NCBI GenBank assembly: GCA_913059205.1
Contig: CAJXRM010000001.1
Coordinates: 22,636 to 86,635 of the forward strand
Length of the DNA: 64,000 nt
From: an uncultured Flavobacteriales bacterium
GTDB taxonomy: Bacteria; Bacteroidota; Bacteroidia; Flavobacteriales_D; Crocinitomicaceae
Reading direction: 5' to 3'
Made by a program: the position numbers and the translations under genes. Numbering within the stretch: position 1 is the first letter of the stretch; each line of letters begins with the position of its first letter. The notes under the pieces are model-generated. The model was not told where the DNA came from, ran no database searches, and saw only the letters and a list, made by a program, of their open reading frames with translations. Below, in pieces: positions 2,516-54,041 of this stretch.

Positions 2516-4248
2516 TTTTTTAGAGCTTGTACAATTGATGTGTTTGTTTCAGTATTGACATGAATAAAATAAACTCCGCTCGAAAAATGTTCGGTTGTTA
2601 AATTTAGCGAGTTTTTGCTAGTGAATTCAGGGGAAATAATTTCCACCATTTTTACACCAACTGAAGAATACACTGTAATGTCTTTTACCAATAATTGACT
2701 TTCGAAAGTTAAAGTCAGTTCATTTTGAAAAGGAATTGGAGATACCGACAACAGGTTTAAATTAGTTGTTTCTATTCCACCTGTTCCACCACCAACTGTA
2801 ATTTGGGCTGTTGTACTGCACCCGTTCGGCCCTGTAATTATTACAGTATAAGTTCCTCCGCATAAATTTGTAGCTGATTGTGTAGTTTGATTTAAAGCAT
2901 CATTCCATTGATAGGTATAAACTGAAGCATCTCCCGAAATAACGACATAAGCCGCTCCATCGCATGTTCCATTATCTGCACTTTGAAAAAGGCTAAAGTT
3001 TATTTCTTCAGGTCCTTCAACAATAACACAAATGTTTTCAGCTTCTAACAACGCATCTGTTACAGTAACGCAATAGGTTCCTGCATTTAAATTTGAAATG
3101 GATTGACTGGTTTGATTTCCTGCGTTCGAATCCCACTGATAAGTATACGGACTTTGACCAGCATAGGCGTTGATAGTAATTGCACCATCCGCTTCTCCAT
3201 CGCAACTTACGTTGGTAATATCAGGATTAATTGCCAGACCATTACTTGTTGGATATGTAACAACAGTTTTTAGTGTAACCGGTAAATGATCTGACATATA
3301 ATATAGGGCTTTTACAACACTGTCTGGATACTGACTGTTTACGGGACCAGCTATTAGACTTGAATTGAAGTGATTTCCATCGTTGCCAATTGCGTCGTAT
3401 GAGTTTGGTAGATATTTTAAGCTGTCACTTCCGTTCATTACTGTGCCACTAACTAAAATTTGATCGAAGCGATCGTCAGAACCACCTTGAGAACCACAAT
3501 CTAGGTTTTGACCATTTCTTGTGGATTGCGTATGCAAATAGGCAAAAGAACCGTTATTATTCCAATTTCCGGGAGCGTTTATTGGGTCGATCAATGGATT
3601 GGAACCACCAGTAGTTAGGTTTTGATAACAACTTTCAGTACTTCGGTAAACATTTAAATCACCGCAAACAAAATGATTTCTATTTTGCGGTCGAGCATCA
3701 ATATAATTGCGGAGTAATGTCACTTGGTCATTTCTTATTGATTGCTCAGAAGATCCAGAGCCAGCTTTTAAATGACACATGTAAACTTCTATAAAAGTTG
3801 TGTCAAATAAATTCGACAAATTTGGATCGTTGACATACAAAACATAATGATCAATATCACGGACACTGGTTTCAATGACATGTTGTTCGTGCAAAATCAA
3901 TTTGGTGGAGTTGTAATACAACATGTTCTGTAAATCACCACCATTAGAATCGTTGTGATAATTTGCTGCCGCATAATTTGTTTCACCAAACACATTTAAC
4001 GATCGTGTTAAAACGCTGTCAGCGCCTCGTTTGTTTTGAATTTCGCATGCTACAAAAATGTCTGGTTGAGCGTAGTTCAAGATTTTTCTTAACGTATCAA
4101 ATCTGTTCGGAACGTTGGTGTTTGAACCGCAGTCATTTCTACCATCTGGAAAGTTGAGTAAATTGTAGGAAACGATTGTGATGGTATCGGATTGAGCACT
4201 CAAAGAAGATGCAATTGCCAAAGCAACTATTAAGAGAATGTTTTTCAT
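2512..4248 (-). CDS. secreted endonuclease/exonuclease/phosphatase (EEP) family protein with two SprB-type repeats and T9SS CTD
   Basis: The start is probably the internal MKNILLIVALAIASSLSAQ (ATG at 4248) rather than 4278. The N-terminal domain is EEP-like (SYNLLNFP ..., GDLNV, SDHLPV). Two SprB-type repeats follow (CDGEADGAITINAYAGQSPYTYQWDS...GTYCVTVTD and CDGAAYVVISGDASVYTYQWND...GTYTVIITGPNGC). The C-terminal tail (VSPIPFQNELTLTF...GVYFIHV) is a T9SS CTD. Confidence 0.65.
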   Translation of the reverse strand: MKNILLIVALAIASSLSAQSDTITIVSYNLLNFPDGRNDCGSNTNVPNRFDTLRKILNYAQPDIFVACEIQNKRGADSVLTRSLNVFGETNYAAANYHNDSNGGDLQNMLYYNSTKLILHEQHVIETSVRDIDHYVLYVNDPNLSNLFDTTFIEVYMCHLKAGSGSSEQSIRNDQVTLLRNYIDARPQNRNHFVCGDLNVYRSTESCYQNLTTGGSNPLIDPINAPGNWNNNGSFAYLHTQSTRNGQNLDCGSQGGSDDRFDQILVSGTVMNGSDSLKYLPNSYDAIGNDGNHFNSSLIAGPVNSQYPDSVVKALYYMSDHLPVTLKTVVTYPTSNGLAINPDITNVSCDGEADGAITINAYAGQSPYTYQWDSNAGNQTSQSISNLNAGTYCVTVTDALLEAENICVIVEGPEEINFSLFQSADNGTCDGAAYVVISGDASVYTYQWNDALNQTTQSATNLCGGTYTVIITGPNGCSTTAQITVGGGTGGIETTNLNLLSVSPIPFQNELTLTFESQLLVKDITVYSSVGVKMVEIISPEFTSKNSLNLTTEHFSSGVYFIHVNTETNTSIVQALKN

Positions 4249-44987: not shown

Positions 44988-46529
44988 ATGGACAAGAATC
45001 AAGAATTAGTAAATAGAAGAAAAGCGTCACATCTTGGTGGTGGGGAACAGCGAATTGCGCGTCAGCATGAACAAGGTAAGCTAACAGCGAGAGAACGTGT
45101 AATACTTTTATTGGATGAAGGTTCATTTCAAGAAATTGGACAATTTGTTGAACACAGAGCAACCTCTTTTGGTTTAGATAAGAATAAAATTCCGGGAGAT
45201 GGAGTTGTTACTGGTTTTGGTACGATTCACGGTCGTTTAATTTATGTTTTTTCACAAGATTTTACCGTTTTGGGAGGATCTCTTTCAGAAACACATGCTG
45301 CAAAAATTTGCCGCGTGATGGATTTGGCAGTGAAGAATGGTGCGCCAATCATCGGATTAAACGATTCTGGTGGAGCACGTATCCAAGAAGGCGTTGTTTC
45401 GTTGGCTGGTTATGCAGATATTTTTTACAGAAATACACGTGCATCAGGAGTTATTCCTCAATTGAGTGTAATTATGGGGCCGTGTGCTGGTGGTGCTGTA
45501 TATTCTCCAGCTTTGACGGATTTTGTTATGATGGTTGAAGACACATCATATATGTTTGTAACAGGACCAAATGTTGTTAAAACAGTAACTCACGAAGAAG
45601 TTTCATCGGAAGATTTAGGAGGAGCGAAAGCACATGCTGAAAAATCGGGTGTAAACCATTTTACTGCTTCGAATGACGTGGAAGCATTGAAAAAAGTGCG
45701 AGATCTAATTACATACATGCCTCAAAACGCAAATGAATTGGCACCGAATCCAACAAAATTTGAGTTTACCAATTCTAAATTATCAACGATTAATGATGTT
45801 TTGCCAGAAAACAGTACGTTGCCTTACGATATTCGAAAAGTTGTTGAGTGCGTAATTGATGATAACAGCTTTAGAGAAGTTCACGAAGATTTTGCGAAAA
45901 ACATCGTTGTTGGATTTGCTCGAATAGAGGGTAAAACCATTGGAGTAGTTGCAAACCAACCGGCTGCAATGGCTGGAGTATTAGACATCGACTCTTCTCG
46001 AAAAGGTGCTCGTTTTGTACGTTTTTGTGATTCATTCAATATTCCATTGTTGGTATTTGAAGATGTTCCTGGATTTTTACCTGGTACTGATCAAGAATGG
46101 AGAGGAATTATCACGCACGGAGCAAAACTGTTATATGCTTTCTGTGAAGCGACTGTTCCAAGAATTACGGTAATTACGCGTAAAGCCTACGGTGGAGCAT
46201 TCGACGTAATGAACTCAAAAAGTATTGGTGCAGATTTGAACTTTGCTTGGCCTACGGCAGAAATTGCGGTGATGGGAGCAAAAGGAGCGGCAGAAATTAT
46301 TTTCAAAAGAGAAATTAATGAAGCGGCAGATCCACAAGCTAAATGGTTAGAAAAGGAAGCTGAATACGCTGAAATGTTTGCTAATCCTTATCGTGCAGCT
46401 GAACGAGGAATTGTAGACGATGTTATTCTTCCTTCTGAAACACGCGCTAAAGTAATTGCTGGATTCAAAATGTTGGAAAATAAAGCTGAAACGCTTCCGT
46501 ATAAAAAACACGGGAATATTCCATTGTAG
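44988..46529 (+). CDS. acyl-CoA carboxylase carboxyltransferase (beta) subunit, propionyl-/methylmalonyl-CoA type
   Basis: 513 aa; [35 protein letters not shown] and [11 protein letters not shown] blocks. Confidence 0.85.
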
Positions 46530-46533
46530 TGTT

Positions 46534-47451
46534 TTACTTTTTTGATTGAATGAAATCAGAAAAGTTATGCGCTAAATCGACATTGAGTTCTTTTAACACT
46601 CTAGAATTGTCAAGCGTTGATGGTTGCGATATATAATCAATAGATTGTTGACTAAATGAAATTGGAATTTTTAGTAACTGACACAAAAAGACAATACTTC
46701 GGACCAAGCGTATAGGTAGCTCCACAAACTGAATATTCTTTGATTTTAATTGACCAATTTCTGTGAATACTTCTCGCAATTCATAATTAATCCGGTCGCA
46801 TACATTGTAAACATGTACACCTTTTTTAGAATTGTTTACGATCAATTGAACTACTTCAGCTAAATTGTTCACATTCGTCAAAGAGCTTTTTACACGCAAA
46901 TTTCCTGGGACCGTGAATTTTCCATTTTTGAACCCCTTGGCTATTTTTGGGAAAAGCGTTTGATCAAAATCACCATAAACGGCTCTTGGTCGAAGAATAT
47001 ACGATGAAGTAAAACTGGATTCTTGAACAACTTTTTCCGCCAATAGTTTGCTTCGACCATAAGTTGAGAGTGCGTTATTTAAAGATGCGTTTTCTTCTTT
47101 GGCCAAAGGATTCTTTTTAAAATCGTACACGGATGCAGATGACACAAAAATGAACAAATCACAACCTTTCAATCTGCGAATTAAGTTTTCTGTAGCGATT
47201 ACATTTTGCAGAATCAGGTCTTTATTCGTTGACTTGTCATCGGCCAATCCTGCACAATGTATACAAATATCAAATTCTAAATCTGAGAATGAATTATTAA
47301 GATCCATCTGAAAGTATTCGATGGTGTCATTTAAATTTTTCGGCCTTGCTTTACGTCCCGTGGCAAAAACCTTGAATTTTTCATTTTCACTCAACTTTCT
47401 CGATATCGTGCCTCCAATAAAACCGCTACCTCCTGTTACTAGTATTTTCAT
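46534..47451 (-). CDS. extended short-chain dehydrogenase/reductase (NAD-dependent epimerase/dehydratase, 3beta-HSD-like)
   Basis: MKILVTGGSGFIGG Rossmann motif and YGRSK (YxxxK) catalytic motif. Its ATG overlaps the upstream stop (ATGA). Confidence 0.75.
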   Translation of the reverse strand: MKILVTGGSGFIGGTISRKLSENEKFKVFATGRKARPKNLNDTIEYFQMDLNNSFSDLEFDICIHCAGLADDKSTNKDLILQNVIATENLIRRLKGCDLFIFVSSASVYDFKKNPLAKEENASLNNALSTYGRSKLLAEKVVQESSFTSSYILRPRAVYGDFDQTLFPKIAKGFKNGKFTVPGNLRVKSSLTNVNNLAEVVQLIVNNSKKGVHVYNVCDRINYELREVFTEIGQLKSKNIQFVELPIRLVRSIVFLCQLLKIPISFSQQSIDYISQPSTLDNSRVLKELNVDLAHNFSDFIQSKK

Positions 47452-48977
47452 TTATGGAATTCTTTTTCAAGTTCAATTCTAATTTTTTTCCGATCGATTT
47501 TATTTTGCCTCCCTAATCGAAGTAATTTTTGAAAAATGATTTTATCTGGTATGGCCTCTTTATCAATGGAATACATGCCAAATAACAATAACTTTTTTAA
47601 GTCATTTTCGTTGATTTTATTGTCCGATTCAACGATTAGATAAACAGTTTCATCTGCAGTTTTTTTATCATAAACACCTATTAACGCAGCTTCTACAATT
47701 CCTGGAATTTTATTAATAGTAGGCTCATATAATCCTGGATATATATTAAAATTTCTACGAATTAGCATGTCTTTTTTTCTTCCAATTAATAATAGTCTAC
47801 CTTCCTTATCAAGTTCGCCTAGATCACCGGATAAGTGAACCTCATGATTGTATTTTTCATGCCAGTATCGCGCAAATTTTTGTGCAGATTTAATACCAAC
47901 TTCTCCTCCCAGATTAATGGATAATGTTACCCCAGAAAATGGTCGCCCTACCAAATCTCCAATTCCTTTATAGTTTATTTTTTCATGCCCATCTTGTATA
48001 CAAACCATTAAATTCTCAGTCATACCATAGAGACAAGTTAATTTCACAGAATTACAAACGTCATCTATTTTTTGTAGGAAGGATTGATAGACAGGCGCTG
48101 AACCGAAATAGAATTGGTTGATACAATCTGGAAATTTAAGCGATTGACTTTTTAATTGATTTATCATTGGAATAAAATCACTTGGCGGTCCAAAAATGGT
48201 GGTAATTGAATTGGCTTTGATAAATTTTAATTTTTCGTTTGGTGAAAGTTCATTGTTCCAGATAAATACTACTTTCCCTGCGTTTATACCCAAGAGCATG
48301 AAATGAGGAAGGTGAGTTGCGATTCGGTCATTTTCTCCTTCATTTAACATCTTTGTCAATAAGTGCATAGTTTCACCTAGACTTTCATAGGTATGAACCA
48401 CTCCTTTTGGTTCATTTAGTGTGCCACTTGTGTAGGTAACTAAAAAATCTTCGGATGGATTAATATCATTAAAATTGGGGGTCAACTTAGTTTTAAATGC
48501 GTGTGTTTTTAGATGCTTGTGCTTTTTAAAAATTGGGAGACGTCTCCCCAAAGTGAATAACTTACACCCTTCAGCTTTTGGTAGAAATGGTAATGTTGGT
48601 CGCAGCTTTTGAAGAAGGTAACGTAGAACAGGATGCTCATTAATTAAAGCCAATCGACTATCAACAAAAGCATGTTGGGGCTTGAATTGTTTAAATTTTG
48701 CGTTGTAGTTTTCTCTTCCCATTTCAGGGTCTATTATGGAAATAATGGTCCCAAGAAGCATATTCGCATACATAATTATTAAAAATTGAGAACCTGGATG
48801 AAGAATTATAACTGTACGGTCACCTTTTTTAACGCCATTTTTTAATAATTCATTTGCAATGGAAATGCTACTATTTAATAATTCTCCAGCTGTTATTGCT
48901 TTACCGTTTTCAACAAGCAGCACCTTGTCATGTTCCCAAGACTTGAGCGTTTCTATAAATACATTCGAAAACATCAT
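47448..48977 (-). CDS. ANL-superfamily adenylating enzyme (AMP-dependent synthetase/ligase)
   Basis: TYTSGTLNEPKGVVHTY, LYGMTEN and SGDLGELDKEGRLLLIGRKKDMLI core motifs; 509 aa. Confidence 0.8.
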   Translation of the reverse strand: MMFSNVFIETLKSWEHDKVLLVENGKAITAGELLNSSISIANELLKNGVKKGDRTVIILHPGSQFLIIMYANMLLGTIISIIDPEMGRENYNAKFKQFKPQHAFVDSRLALINEHPVLRYLLQKLRPTLPFLPKAEGCKLFTLGRRLPIFKKHKHLKTHAFKTKLTPNFNDINPSEDFLVTYTSGTLNEPKGVVHTYESLGETMHLLTKMLNEGENDRIATHLPHFMLLGINAGKVVFIWNNELSPNEKLKFIKANSITTIFGPPSDFIPMINQLKSQSLKFPDCINQFYFGSAPVYQSFLQKIDDVCNSVKLTCLYGMTENLMVCIQDGHEKINYKGIGDLVGRPFSGVTLSINLGGEVGIKSAQKFARYWHEKYNHEVHLSGDLGELDKEGRLLLIGRKKDMLIRRNFNIYPGLYEPTINKIPGIVEAALIGVYDKKTADETVYLIVESDNKINENDLKKLLLFGMYSIDKEAIPDKIIFQKLLRLGRQNKIDRKKIRIELEKEFHK

Positions 48978-48978
48978 A

Positions 48979-49968
48979 TTACCAAGTGATTAATTGAACT
49001 GAAACACTGATTCCTGCAGCTAATCCTACGATCATTAACTTGTCCTTTTTCTTCAACTTTTGGTGCTTTATGGCATAATCGATTGCTAATGGAATGGAAG
49101 CCGCAGCTGTATTTCCATATTGCTCAAAGACATTGATACATTTTTCGGTTGGAACACCAAGCACATTTGCTGTAAAATCGACCATTTCTTTCGAAACTTG
49201 ATGGGTAATTAGGCAGTCAATATCTTCGATCTTCCATGGGCTTTTTTCAATTTCTTCAATAATGAATGGCAAAGCGTTATCAAAAAACATTTCACTTAAT
49301 CCTGCGGTATTTCCTTCAAAATAGTAACTCTCAGGGTTTCTGAAAGATCGAGACCCGCCACCAGCAACTGTGCATAACTCCCAGAATTCACCCCAGGAAT
49401 TAGAACTCTGAAATTCGATTAAGCTGCCATTTTTCGATGAAATTAACACTGCTGTACCGGCATCTCCCAAACTGTAACCAGCAAGGCAACGTTTTAAATG
49501 TTCTTTGTCTTTTGGGTTAAAATTTATGACTTCACTCAATTTTTCGCCGTTTACAATTAAAACGTTGTTGTACATTCCTGAGGAGATATACGCGCTTGCC
49601 GCTTGAATGGCAGCGGTTACACTGTTACATGCATTTTTAATGTCCATAACTGGACATGTGATTCCAAGCTTTTGTTGTACAATGTTGGAAGTTGCTGGCT
49701 CTATCATATCTGATGAAGCAGCGGCAAAAATCAGAAGGTCAATTTTCTCATCAATTCTATCTATAATAATTTTTCCAGCTTCTGCCGCTAGGTCACTAAC
49801 CTGCATTGATTTTTCGGCAATGTGTCTGTTTTTTGAACCAAATAACTTATGTAATGTTCCTTCTTGCAGATGAGATCCGTTAACTCTTATTTGACTTTCA
49901 ATGTCTTTATCAGAAAGAATTTTTTCTGGAAGGTAGACAGCTAAATCTTTAATATATGCCTTTATCAT
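48979..49968 (-). CDS. KAS III-type (FabH/OleA-like) thiolase-fold condensing enzyme
   Basis: Start taken at MIKAYIKDL (ATG 49968, an ATGA overlap with the upstream stop). Cys-His-Asn candidates lie in IKNACNSV, LITHQVS and YGNTAAASIP. Confidence 0.75.
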   Translation of the reverse strand: MIKAYIKDLAVYLPEKILSDKDIESQIRVNGSHLQEGTLHKLFGSKNRHIAEKSMQVSDLAAEAGKIIIDRIDEKIDLLIFAAASSDMIEPATSNIVQQKLGITCPVMDIKNACNSVTAAIQAASAYISSGMYNNVLIVNGEKLSEVINFNPKDKEHLKRCLAGYSLGDAGTAVLISSKNGSLIEFQSSNSWGEFWELCTVAGGGSRSFRNPESYYFEGNTAGLSEMFFDNALPFIIEEIEKSPWKIEDIDCLITHQVSKEMVDFTANVLGVPTEKCINVFEQYGNTAAASIPLAIDYAIKHQKLKKKDKLMIVGLAAGISVSVQLITW

Positions 49969-50870
49969 ACTGATGCCTTTAAAATTTTTCTCCAAAGCGG
50001 CTTCGTTATCCAATTGAAACCGTTAAACGAATTGACAAATTCAATTGAAGCCTTAAGTGAGTTTTCCGCAAACTTTCCACGATAATGTTTAATTGCTGCC
50101 TTATAATATTTGTTAGGATTTTCGACGCCAATTTTTTGAAAAAATTCCTTTTTAACGTACAATGTTCGCATAAAATAGATGTTTAACATCACTACAATGC
50201 TGTATTGTGTTGCTCGAAAAAATCCAGCCTTTGCAGTAAATTTTTTCAGCCATGACTCGGTATAAAAAATATGTCTTCCTTCTTCTATATAATGAAGTTC
50301 AGAAGATTTACGCATAACCGAGAATACCTTTTCATCTTTGCGAATGTGTTTAGCATAAATGTCAGCCATCAACTCAATCGATAATACAGACATAAAAACA
50401 AGAGATGGTCTTAACCGCTTTACAGTTAAATTTCCGAAAAACTTATGTAGACGCGTAGGCATTATTGGAATCCGGTCTAATTTTTTAATGGCCATCCCAA
50501 ACATTTCTTGATGACGATACTCCTCAATTAATTCACGGATTAAAAAACGATACTCGGAACTATCTGGGTTTAGTTTTAGTAAGTGTCTGTTAAAAAAATG
50601 GCATGCCAATGTCTCTGACCAAGCATAAGAATACATAACTTGAACAACTTCTAATCGGCCTAGCTCTATTTGTTGTTCTTTAGTCAAAGTATCCCACAAT
50701 GGATGTCCAGCAAGTGACACTAATTTTTCAGGCATGAATAATGTGTCTTGATTTGGTTCATCGTCCCAAGGAACGTATGTTTCTGGCAGAAGAGGTTTTT
50801 CTTTACTAATCCGAATCATTCGCTCCACTTGAGCTTCGAATTCATCAGAATTGGTTTCCATTCGTTTCAT
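49965..50870 (-). CDS. ferritin-like diiron oxygenase (AurF-like family)
   Basis: All-helical 301-aa protein with two ExxH motifs (IEEYRHQ and IEEGRHI) plus further conserved Glu/His (SETLACH, SIELMADIYAKH). Confidence 0.6.
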   Translation of the reverse strand: MKRMETNSDEFEAQVERMIRISKEKPLLPETYVPWDDEPNQDTLFMPEKLVSLAGHPLWDTLTKEQQIELGRLEVVQVMYSYAWSETLACHFFNRHLLKLNPDSSEYRFLIRELIEEYRHQEMFGMAIKKLDRIPIMPTRLHKFFGNLTVKRLRPSLVFMSVLSIELMADIYAKHIRKDEKVFSVMRKSSELHYIEEGRHIFYTESWLKKFTAKAGFFRATQYSIVVMLNIYFMRTLYVKKEFFQKIGVENPNKYYKAAIKHYRGKFAENSLKASIEFVNSFNGFNWITKPLWRKILKASV

Positions 50871-50891
50871 ATTCTGTTACATTTTATAGGA

Positions 50892-50899
50892 CAAATTTA
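50892..50899 (-). promoter_or_regulatory. Bacteroidetes-type -7 promoter box (TAAATTTG on minus strand)
   Basis: Matches TAnnTTTG and lies 22 nt upstream of the diiron oxygenase ATG (50870). Confidence 0.4.
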
Positions 50900-50950
50900 G
50901 ATGTAGTCTTACCATATTTATTACTGAATCACACACGTGAAATTTTGCGA

Positions 50951-50967
50951 GTTGCGATTTTCGCAAC
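50951..50967. promoter_or_regulatory. inverted repeat GTTGCGA-TTT-TCGCAAC in a divergent promoter region
   Basis: Perfect 7-bp arms, preceded by another TTGCGA copy (50945-50950). It sits between the divergently transcribed biosynthetic operon and aspS. Confidence 0.3.
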
Positions 50968-51051
50968 AGCGACAATAAGTAGGCAAGGTATAATATGGAG
51001 TTTTACCATGTAATGAGCTGTCTTTTGTCTTGCAGACTTGACTCTAATGTC

Positions 51052-51059
51052 TATCTTTG
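51052..51059 (+). promoter_or_regulatory. Bacteroidetes-type -7 promoter box (TATCTTTG)
   Basis: Matches TAnnTTTG and lies 21 nt upstream of the aspS ATG. Confidence 0.4.
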
Positions 51060-51079
51060 CAACCGATTAATTTTATCTC

Positions 51080-52854: not shown

Positions 52855-53079
52855 ATGGAAAACATCAACGAATACATCGGCTATTTAGCCTCAGGAGTTT
52901 TACTTCTTTCATTTATGATGAAGAAAATGTCCACGTTGCGTATCATCAACACGATTGGTTGTGGTATTTTTATCCTTTATGGTTCACTAATTGGCTCTTT
53001 TCCAGTAATTATTACGAATGTGGCTATTTGTTTGATCAATCTTTATTATTTGCTAATTAAAGACAAGCTAAAGAGTTAA
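52855..53079 (+). CDS. small three-TM membrane protein (half-size YgjV/SemiSWEET-like)
   Basis: 74 aa with three hydrophobic helices. The family assignment is a weak guess. Confidence 0.3.
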   Translation: MENINEYIGYLASGVLLLSFMMKKMSTLRIINTIGCGIFILYGSLIGSFPVIITNVAICLINLYYLLIKDKLKS

Positions 53080-54041
53080 TTCATTTGCTCCAACTGTATT
53101 TTACGCTTCCTTAATCGAACCAAATAATTGTTCGCCAACTTATCACCGCACTCCAACGCGGCTTTTTCGGCGTAGAAAATTGCACTATCAACATCTCCCT
53201 GACCTTCCTTTACTAAGGCTAGATTAAACAGAACTCGGCCTCTGATTTTTTCTTTGTGATGGTCAATATCAAGAAGCAATTGTTTTTCAGCAATGTCCCA
53301 ATTTCCTTCTTTTATCATTGGACGAGCTCTTTTTAAGACATCGCTTCCCTTCGTGTAATAATCCCGGTCAACCCAAACCCAATTTGGATAAATTAGCTTT
53401 GCCATTCCATAGCCTAATTCATAACCAAGCGCTCGATAATACTCTTGTTTTCTTTTGACATCGTTGAGAATATCGATGATGGTAGTAGTACCACTTAATG
53501 GAATGTTGTAAAAACGTCTGATGCGCAATCGCTCTATTATTTCGTGCGTATTAGCAATGTAAATATTAGCATATAAATATCCTTCTAATCGAGTGGATGA
53601 TTGTCCCGTTGAACTTGCTAACAAACTTCCACCAACAGGAGAAATTGTTTGAACTTCAGTTAATTCTAGAATTCCTTGAAGGACTTGGGAGTTGCAAATA
53701 CTGTCAATTGCAGACCAATTTACGTTTCCATCGTAAGTTTTAATTTCTCCATTCGCCAAAGTCTTTCCAATTAAATTCGAGGACTTTCCAAGCCCTCTTA
53801 AAACTCCTTCGACTGCTCTTTCAGCTGCCACGGTGTTTCCATTAATGCTTTGAGATTGAAGCAACACTTCAATAATTTTTTCAGGACTATTCTCTTTATT
53901 AACATTGTTTAAAACTCCAATTGTCCGCACTTCTGAAGGAATTTTCACAATGGAAGGTTCTTTCACAGAAATACGAAATGACGTTTTACACGAAGCAAGA
54001 ATAAAAACACTTAATAAAACAATGGGAAACTTAAATTTCAT
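53076..54041 (-). CDS. lipoprotein with C-terminal TPR-like helical repeat
   Basis: Lipobox FILASCK. The C-terminus GNWDIAEKQLL...FNLALVKEGQGDVDSAIFYAEKAAL is TPR-like. Confidence 0.4.
   Translation of the reverse strand: MKFKFPIVLLSVFILASCKTSFRISVKEPSIVKIPSEVRTIGVLNNVNKENSPEKIIEVLLQSQSINGNTVAAERAVEGVLRGLGKSSNLIGKTLANGEIKTYDGNVNWSAIDSICNSQVLQGILELTEVQTISPVGGSLLASSTGQSSTRLEGYLYANIYIANTHEIIERLRIRRFYNIPLSGTTTIIDILNDVKRKQEYYRALGYELGYGMAKLIYPNWVWVDRDYYTKGSDVLKRARPMIKEGNWDIAEKQLLLDIDHHKEKIRGRVLFNLALVKEGQGDVDSAIFYAEKAALECGDKLANNYLVRLRKRKIQLEQMN

Follow-up and report, generated by a model that had tools for sequence, protein, structure and literature searches.

What does a bacterium make with a diiron oxygenase, a thiolase-fold condensing enzyme, an adenylating enzyme and a reductase that are encoded side by side? 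This question is raised by four minus-strand open reading frames (ORFs; positions 46534-50870) in a stretch of 64,000 nucleotides of contig CAJXRM010000001.1 from an uncultured Flavobacteriales bacterium. The whole stretch, which has a G+C content of about 36%, is referred to as the window. Pfam confirmed the families to which an earlier note on this DNA had assigned the four products (Table 1), namely an AurF-like diiron protein, a ketoacyl synthase III (KAS III)-type thiolase, an adenylate-forming enzyme of the ANL type and an extended short-chain dehydrogenase/reductase (SDR). The last three had been likened to OleA, OleC and OleD of the head-to-head (Ole-type) condensation pathway, which has been found in Proteobacteria, Actinobacteria and a small number of further phyla. 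The order KAS III-ANL-SDR equals oleA-oleC-oleD without oleB and was counted for an Ole-type reading. With belief and doubt about evenly balanced, the cassette is read here from its protein sequences as a self-contained, divergent relative of the oleA-oleC-oleD head-to-head lipid pathway, in which the diiron oxygenase would serve as a fourth enzyme.

Conservation of the four genes was followed in a scan for relatives of the diiron protein, in which one genome per species was considered and 80 of 129 relatives were kept. A KAS III gene comes after the diiron gene in 38 of the 80 kept loci, and at least 33 of these 38 carry the complete series diiron-KAS III-ANL-SDR in the same order. The remaining five loci have fewer than four genes, and several of those contigs end within the cassette. 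Median intergenic gaps, extrapolated for the related loci, are -1, +4 and -5 nt. This four-gene arrangement is far above chance. The cassette is found in Chitinophagaceae, Dyadobacter isolates, Saprospiraceae, Adhaeribacter, a Sphingobacteriaceae metagenome-assembled genome (MAG) and a Flavobacteriia MAG; among cultured strains it occurs in Dyadobacter sp. CY312, CY323 and MSC1_007, and Adhaeribacter aerolatus has at least the KAS III. Clustering of all flanking ORFs of the related loci revealed no fifth conserved gene, and the immediate neighbours of the cassette vary from lineage to lineage. The four genes thus stay together in relatives across orders, as the unit that the earlier note had drawn, and no larger cluster surrounds them. 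Conservation is highest for the diiron protein (49-86% identity; 50-86% across orders), and identities among the KAS III, ANL and SDR orthologues range from 24 to 61%.

A Pfam scan of the window proteins found no acyl carrier protein (ACP), thioesterase or alpha/beta-hydrolase inside the operon or adjoining it, in agreement with what had been claimed for the operon. The proposed absence of OleB also held at the cassette, since no alpha/beta-hydrolase of the OleB type lies in or beside it in the window and the related loci inspected. Likewise, no ACP or malonyl-transfer gene is linked to the cassette in the 33 loci.

The first of the three Ole-like proteins, the KAS III, has a Cys114-His256-Asn286 triad that is invariant among the orthologues aligned (26-39 sequences) and a Glu90-Pro91 pair that is invariant in 39 orthologues. 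FabHs carry Phe-Pro at this site (DMQFPST in Neisseria, DMPFPTV in S. aureus and DFVFPST in Burkholderia), and Phe87 is taken to be the equivalent residue of E. coli FabH. The FabH motif HQAN is replaced by HQ(V/I)S in the orthologues (HQVS in the window). At the position of FabH Arg249, which presumably docks the ACP, the aligned residues are G, N, S, D or T, and Arg is never among the five commonest. The protein also stays below all curated FabH cut-offs, among them that of PRK09352 (174 bits, cut-off 249), and below that of PRK09258 (139 bits, cut-off 285); no OleA-named NCBIfam model is among its matches. Judged by the exchange of Phe for Glu and of HQAN for HQVS, the loss of the docking Arg and the sub-threshold score, the KAS III is not a housekeeping FabH and is not placed within that group.

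The window sequence SSDMIEPATSNIV aligns to SRDYLEPSTASIV, which contains the Glu-Pro of OleA from X. campestris (chain 3row). This pair was equated with Glu117-Pro118 on the basis of PMC7064751 and an offset argument, not of printed numbering. In OleA, Glu117-Pro reaches into the partner subunit and provides the base of the non-decarboxylative Claisen condensation; this feature is confined to OleA homologues, nearly all of which have it (PMC7064751). The equivalent Glu105 of PpyS is a functionally required general base, again in a non-decarboxylative condensation (PMC4578411). The proposed correspondence to OleA is therefore sustained at the residue that matters for the OleA mechanism, and the KAS III can be regarded as a putative head-to-head (non-decarboxylative) condensing enzyme. 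The Joint Genome Institute (JGI) names many of the orthologues 'acyl-CoA:acyl-CoA alkyltransferase' and others FabH. Further identities were tried for this protein and rejected: a DarB/StlD resorcinol synthase (50 bits, no DarA), BioZ and HMG-CoA synthase.

The SDR also resembles its Ole counterpart. In the orthologue alignment S104, S105, S107, Tyr131 and Lys135, which comprise the Ser-Tyr-Lys triad, are invariant. OleD is the best NCBIfam model for all orthologues (26/26), with a best E value of 4e-52; the thioester reductases, as the next unrelated family, attain 1e-26 at best. The copy in the window is divergent (OleD 63 bits, GalE 58 bits), and all orthologues remain below the 580-bit OleD cut-off (NF042422, NF042423). 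The correspondence to OleD drawn earlier stood this comparison, and the SDR is best described as an OleD-like putative 2-alkyl-3-oxoacid reductase.

The gene of the third protein, the ANL enzyme, is flanked by those of the KAS III and the SDR in at least 33 loci. Motifs A3, A5, A7, A8 and A10 can be read from its translation, and the A10 lysine (K493) is invariant. Its A8 motif (GRKKDMLIRRNFNIYPGLYEP) is unusual and resembles what we take to be the fatty-acyl-CoA-synthetase signature of E. coli FadD. The PDB neighbours are FadD13 as the best match, malonyl-CoA synthetase and MenE. An identity as a fatty-acyl-AMP ligase (FAAL) was rejected because the 60 best PDB matches include no FAAL structure.

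The diiron protein is an addition to the Ole-type set. Its putative diiron ligands E86, E117, H120, E166, H193, E197 and H200 are invariant in both alignments of the family, and the spacing 27/4/3 of the last four equals that of E196, H223, E227 and H230 in AurF, as we take that protein to be numbered. The AurF hidden Markov model of Pfam matches with 140 bits. Neither AurF and CmlI nor any other PDB chain was matched by phmmer or by a family profile of the diiron protein. An AlphaFold2 model (pLDDT 89.6) retrieved AurF and CmlI as best PDB matches in Foldseek (E about 1e-4, TM 0.5-0.65), followed by weaker matches to RNR R2, R2lox and the aldehyde-deformylating oxygenase ADO (E 0.015-0.1). 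The description as 'AurF-like' in the earlier note is thus upheld by the Pfam family and the ligand set and fails at the level of sequence and profile searches, which do not detect AurF or CmlI. A profile search of 1.84 billion representatives returned 480 clusters at E<1e-3 and 19 at E<1e-30. From these searches, the protein is a member of a small separate AurF-family subfamily without a characterised member. The next tier of relatives consists of mycobacterial 'AurF N-oxygenase family' proteins that are paired or fused with DUF4873 (L087:7001-8619, L088:7001-8248), and the contexts of these mycobacterial genes gave no functional lead. The pairing of an AurF-family protein with DUF4873 is also seen in LitN/LitO, which N-hydroxylate an acyl-threonine amide in lipothrenin biosynthesis (PMC10616846). 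An antiphage role was rejected: the Ukko system has an AurF-like protein with other partners.

How old the association of the four genes is can be judged from the outgroups of the diiron protein. Its two nearest outgroup clusters share 29-34% identity with the window copy and lie on contigs with 21-37% G+C. These contigs contain 123 in-frame TGA codons, 58 of which align to Gly and three to Trp in the window, and not a single internal TAA or TAG. By this codon usage they use genetic code 25 (UGA=Gly), the Gracilibacteria/Absconditabacteria type. The cassette linkage recurs on UGA=Gly contigs in the same order at 30-37% identity. One of them carries the full cassette (L092:5465-9800) with a KAS III that contains DITEPAT; upstream of it lie a second ANL gene, a C92 amidase, a phosphopantetheinyl transferase and an MFS transporter. 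Two others show diiron-KAS III-ANL (L090, 429-3692; L091). Because the cassette recurs in the UGA=Gly lineage, the linkage of the diiron gene with the trio is, on these sequences, old. On a further contig, L089, the SDR gene is broken (2939-3781): its N-terminal 177 codons are on the plus strand and a C-terminus-like sequence is on the minus strand, which suggests an inversion or a chimeric assembly.

A different fate of the diiron gene is seen in about 40 Mucilaginibacter/Hufsiella loci (L024 and L036-L080; for example L036:7251-9982), where it occurs alone. These loci form one clade that is nested within the cassette-bearing sequences, and when the nearest cassette KAS III was used as query, no Mucilaginibacter orthologue appeared among 120 matches down to 48% identity. 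From this nesting and the missing KAS III match, the partner genes were probably lost in Mucilaginibacter/Hufsiella. The solo gene is preceded by a PAP2_C or glyoxalase gene and faces a convergent bioB. A functional tie with bioB was rejected, as the two genes are convergent and the arrangement probably reflects genus synteny.

Several cassette loci have additional genes or gene forms. In six of them a START-domain (lipid-binding/SRPBCC) gene follows the SDR gene (e.g. L025:12401-13012). On a JGI metagenomic contig, genes for a FA_hydroxylase protein and a PAP2 phosphatase lie directly 3' of the SDR gene on the same strand (L085:12569-14036); the former is a membrane protein annotated as 'Delta7-sterol 5-desaturase'. 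A DUF6340 gene occurs near this cassette and likewise in the window (53076-54041). The lipid-type accessory genes (FA_hydroxylase and PAP2, START, and PAP2_C before the solo gene) fit a lipid product; the second ANL, the phosphopantetheinyl transferase and the MFS transporter of L092 were likewise counted as lipid-type neighbours. On a 10.6-kb contig of the European Nucleotide Archive, one uninterrupted ORF (P0240, 478 aa) joins the C-terminal half of the diiron protein to the KAS III, which may be a natural fusion or result from a frameshift or assembly error.

Comparison with known systems places the cassette next to an actinobacterial cluster type. The nearest annotated trio, whose ANL is the best of 759 plasmid-borne ANL matches, is found on plasmid pKVP2 of Streptomyces viridifaciens (L086), in the order ketoacyl-ACP synthase III, GT2, acyl-CoA ligase, cytochrome P450 and NAD(P)-oxidoreductase. 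Its KAS III, ANL and SDR are 30%, 26% and 26% identical to the window proteins. Idiosyncratic motifs are shared in all three: DICEPAT (D-I-x-E-P-A-T) and NACNSF in the KAS III, GRLKDMVLRRARNIYPGLYEP and the A8 motif GRxKDMxxRRxxNIYPGLYEP in the ANL, and VSSASVYD...RPRAVYG in the SDR. The model profile of the pKVP2 trio is equally weak, with OleD as the best SDR model. A cluster of the composition OleA-GT-OleC-P450-OleD has been described in Actinoplanes atraurantiacus, where OleA was active in a p-nitrophenyl ester assay and a hydroxylated, glycosylated beta-lactone was predicted as the product (PMC7064751). Clusters of the Actinoplanes/pKVP2 type share with the cassette an embedded oxygenase and the lack of OleB; unlike it, they have a P450 in place of the diiron protein and a glycosyltransferase in addition, and their product is only predicted. 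By gene content and shared motifs, the cassette is a relative of this recognised, uncharacterised oleACD subtype, with a diiron oxygenase where the subtype has a P450.

The classical OleABCD systems of Xanthomonas campestris and Shewanella have in common with the cassette the KAS III fold with Cys-His-Asn and Glu-Pro, the OleD-type SDR, the ANL enzyme and the order A-C-D. The cassette differs from them in that OleB is missing, a diiron oxygenase is present in addition, CoA-ligase models fit the ANL better and all three Ole-like proteins lie far below the curated OleC, OleD and PRK09258 cut-offs. The lstABCD (lipstatin) and nltABCD (nocardiolactone) clusters likewise lack OleB, and their published product is a beta-lactone; nltABCD is, moreover, a minimal four-gene operon. 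These clusters are, however, actinobacterial and contain no oxygenase, and their condensing enzymes are heterodimers (LstA/B, NltA/B) with the Glu on a truncated, triad-less subunit, whereas the cassette encodes a single KAS III with both triad and Glu. The pyrone synthases PpyS and PyrS resemble the cassette KAS III as Glu-bearing head-to-head enzymes with the same Cys-Glu spacing, but stand alone without a linked ANL, SDR or oxygenase. The diiron protein, in turn, shares with AurF/CmlI and LitN the Pfam family and the ligand pattern E...ExxH...E...HxxxExxH, in addition to the structural matches; unlike AurF and CmlI it has no amine substrate in evidence, and no pairwise or profile similarity to them is detectable.

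From these relationships a pathway can be sketched. The KAS III would load a fatty-acyl thioester onto Cys114, and Glu90 of the partner subunit would remove the alpha-proton, so that the resulting carbanion attacks a second acyl thioester to give a 2-alkyl-3-oxo acid, as the residues suggest. The OleD-like SDR would, by its family, reduce this compound to the 2-alkyl-3-hydroxy acid. The ANL enzyme would then adenylate the free 2-alkyl-3-hydroxy acid and either close a beta-lactone, as do OleC, LstC and NltC, or transfer the acid to CoA or another acceptor. By analogy with the P450 of the actinobacterial clusters, the diiron enzyme might use O2 to hydroxylate, desaturate or otherwise oxidise an intermediate or one of the acyl chains. 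Such a pathway would end in a branched, long-chain hydroxy acid or beta-lactone that is oxidised, and not in an olefin because OleB is absent. Rather doubtful is a bolder proposal, namely that the diiron protein represents a new functional branch of the AurF family whose substrate is a lipid and not an amine, for instance through an O2-dependent change of the 2-alkyl-3-hydroxy acid or beta-lactone, possibly as an oxidative substitute for OleB.

A number of observations weigh against an Ole-type pathway. Among PDB chains the KAS III scores higher overall with FabH (138 bits) than with OleA (82 bits), and the decarboxylative PqsD has Asp-Pro at the site of Glu90-Pro91, so that an acidic residue there is suggestive and not proof. 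The ANL, whose affiliation was judged by model scores and the nearest annotated relative, scores highest with the fatty-acid-CoA-ligase models PRK09274 (151 bits; best orthologue 1e-52) and PRK06187 (147 bits) and attains 88 bits with the OleC models NF045786 and NF045785, whose cut-off is 900 (best orthologue 4e-31). The ligase models outrank the OleC models in 26 of 26 orthologues, and JGI labels the protein a generic acyl-CoA synthetase. The assignment as an OleC beta-lactone synthetase in the earlier note is not supported by these scores; by model the ANL lies outside the OleC family and would catalyse either an OleC-like beta-lactone closure or the formation of an acyl-CoA. The diiron gene persists alone in the roughly 40 solo loci, so the other three genes are not strictly needed with it, and L089 (513-3469) has diiron-ANL-SDR with no KAS III between. 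Finally, every characterised AurF-family enzyme that we know of or found oxygenates nitrogen, not carbon. The FabH and ligase matches, the acidic residue of PqsD and the KAS III-less L089 are also the points in favour of a primer module. Here the ANL would make an unusual acyl-CoA, perhaps after an initial oxidation by the diiron enzyme, the KAS III would condense it decarboxylatively with malonyl-ACP or malonyl-CoA as do FabH and PqsD, and the SDR would reduce the 3-oxo group, which would yield an unusual fatty acid or a short hydroxy acid destined for a membrane lipid or a signal. All KAS III orthologues, however, lack the FabH hallmarks Phe87, HQAN and docking Arg249, the SDR family is specifically OleD-like, the linked loci lack ACP and malonyl-transfer genes, and the alkyltransferase name that JGI gives to many KAS III orthologues is that of OleA, so we consider this explanation unlikely. 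The variant raised earlier, in which a FAAL accompanies a primer KAS III, gains nothing from the analysis, given the lack of FAAL matches and of the FabH hallmarks.

The remaining explanations all have low probability. An arylamine route, comparable to AurF with AurE or to PqsA, PqsD and PqsL, would have the ANL activate an aminobenzoate-type acid, the KAS III extend it with malonyl-CoA, the diiron enzyme N-oxygenate it and the SDR reduce the keto group. It draws on the Pfam assignment, the full AurF-type ligand set (four Glu and three His), the best structural matches and the presence of PqsD among the KAS III relatives. It becomes quite improbable in view of the failure to detect AurF or CmlI by sequence or profile, the lipid-type accessory neighbours and the ANL itself, with FadD13 as its best PDB match and its FadD-like A8 motif; moreover, no gene for anthranilate or p-aminobenzoate synthesis or other amine supply lies near any locus inspected. 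Marginally less probable still is a pyrone or other head-to-head product, for which the Glu-bearing KAS III would join an acyl and a 3-oxoacyl thioester to an alpha-pyrone signal to be tailored by the other enzymes. The Cys-Glu spacing of the KAS III is indeed 24 residues, as in PpyS (C129, E105) and not 26 as in OleA, and the Glu is functionally required in PpyS; yet PpyS and PyrS act with neither an ANL nor an OleD-like reductase, and the conserved OleD-like SDR points to a reducible 3-oxo acid. The least probable of the explanations dispenses with condensation: the ANL would activate a fatty acid, the SDR would act as a thioester reductase to give an aldehyde, and the diiron protein would convert it into an alkane like ADO. 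Matches of the SDR to NAD_binding_4 and thioester-reductase models, ADO among the Foldseek matches and the diiron-ANL-SDR content of L089 agree with such a hydrocarbon route. The OleD models are, however, ahead of the reductase models by 25 orders of magnitude, the ADO matches are weak (E 0.04-0.1) against about 1e-4 for AurF/CmlI, and ADO presumably lacks the third histidine that the diiron protein has. The route would also leave the near-universal KAS III without a role.

The layout of the operon in the window is compact (Table 1). Two ATGA overlaps and a 1-nt gap had been described at the junctions, and the minus-strand sequence bears them out: gtATGAtaa at 49968-49965 between diiron and KAS III genes, TAAtATG with a lone t at 48978 between KAS III and ANL genes, and aaATGAaa at 47451-47448 between ANL and SDR genes. 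The program-made KAS III ORF opens at a TTG (50013) inside the diiron gene and would encode 344 aa, but public gene calls and the orthologue alignment back the ATG at 49968. Public gene calls on several identical metagenomic contigs give the same lengths for all four proteins (301/329/509/305 aa).

Table 1. Coordinates of the cassette genes and of the candidate promoter element in the window.
Feature	Position	Strand	Supporting match
Diiron (ferritin-fold) oxygenase, 301 aa	49965-50870	minus	PF11583 AurF, 8.6e-41
KAS III-type thiolase, 329 aa from ATG	48979-49968	minus	ACP_syn_III + ACP_syn_III_C
ANL adenylate-forming enzyme, 509 aa	47448-48977	minus	AMP-binding, 1.9e-31
Extended SDR, 305 aa	46534-47451	minus	Epimerase, 3Beta_HSD, NAD_binding_4 (Pfam)
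Candidate promoter -7 box TAAATTTG	50892-50899	minus	Matches Bacteroidota consensus TAnnTTTG, 21 nt before first ATG

The earlier note had given the operon its own -7 box. The match is present, fits a Bacteroidota promoter and is the sole minus-strand TAnnTTTG within 46534-51079; the motif shows no enrichment across the window (79 occurrences against 90 expected), which makes TAAATTTG a candidate promoter element only and no evidence by itself. Upstream of the cassette just 209 nt precede the divergent aspS. At the other end, a convergent carboxyltransferase gene (mmdA/PCC-beta-like, 44988-46529) stops 4 nt from the SDR stop (46534). This spacing leaves no room for a terminator, and the transcripts must overlap or end within the opposite gene. 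The flanks in the window are housekeeping: carboxyltransferase, aspS, DUF6340, cysS, polA, a MoxR/DUF58 pair and a YkuD transpeptidase. A flexirubin, aryl-polyene or other large cluster was rejected, since housekeeping genes flank the cassette and the flanks change with every lineage.

The earlier note knew of no characterised example of this gene combination. A literature search indeed found no description of the four-gene cassette, but the oleACD clusters with a P450 are a near-precedent, and that part of the claim has to be narrowed. The oleACD logic has already been published, as have oleACD clusters that contain an additional oxygenase. New are the diiron partner, the single-subunit KAS III that carries the Glu and belongs to a minimal four-gene operon, and the Bacteroidota and UGA-recoded hosts; no report of a head-to-head (Ole-type) pathway from Bacteroidota or candidate-phyla bacteria was found in the literature search.

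The cassette is a compact set of four genes that includes no accessory carrier protein, and it is conserved over deep divergence. Its presence in cultured strains makes it directly testable. As the diiron oxygenase subfamily has no characterised member, the cassette could reveal a new lipid or beta-lactone together with a new reaction of the AurF family; Ole-type beta-lactones include inhibitors of serine hydrolases such as lipstatin. To our knowledge, UGA=Gly bacteria are usually thought to lack fatty-acid synthesis, and the occurrence of the cassette in these organisms would bear on how they remodel scavenged lipids. If the diiron protein does represent a lipid-acting branch, Bacteroidota and fatty-acid-scavenging bacteria of the Gracilibacteria/Absconditabacteria type would gain a new class of head-to-head condensed, oxidised lipid or beta-lactone.

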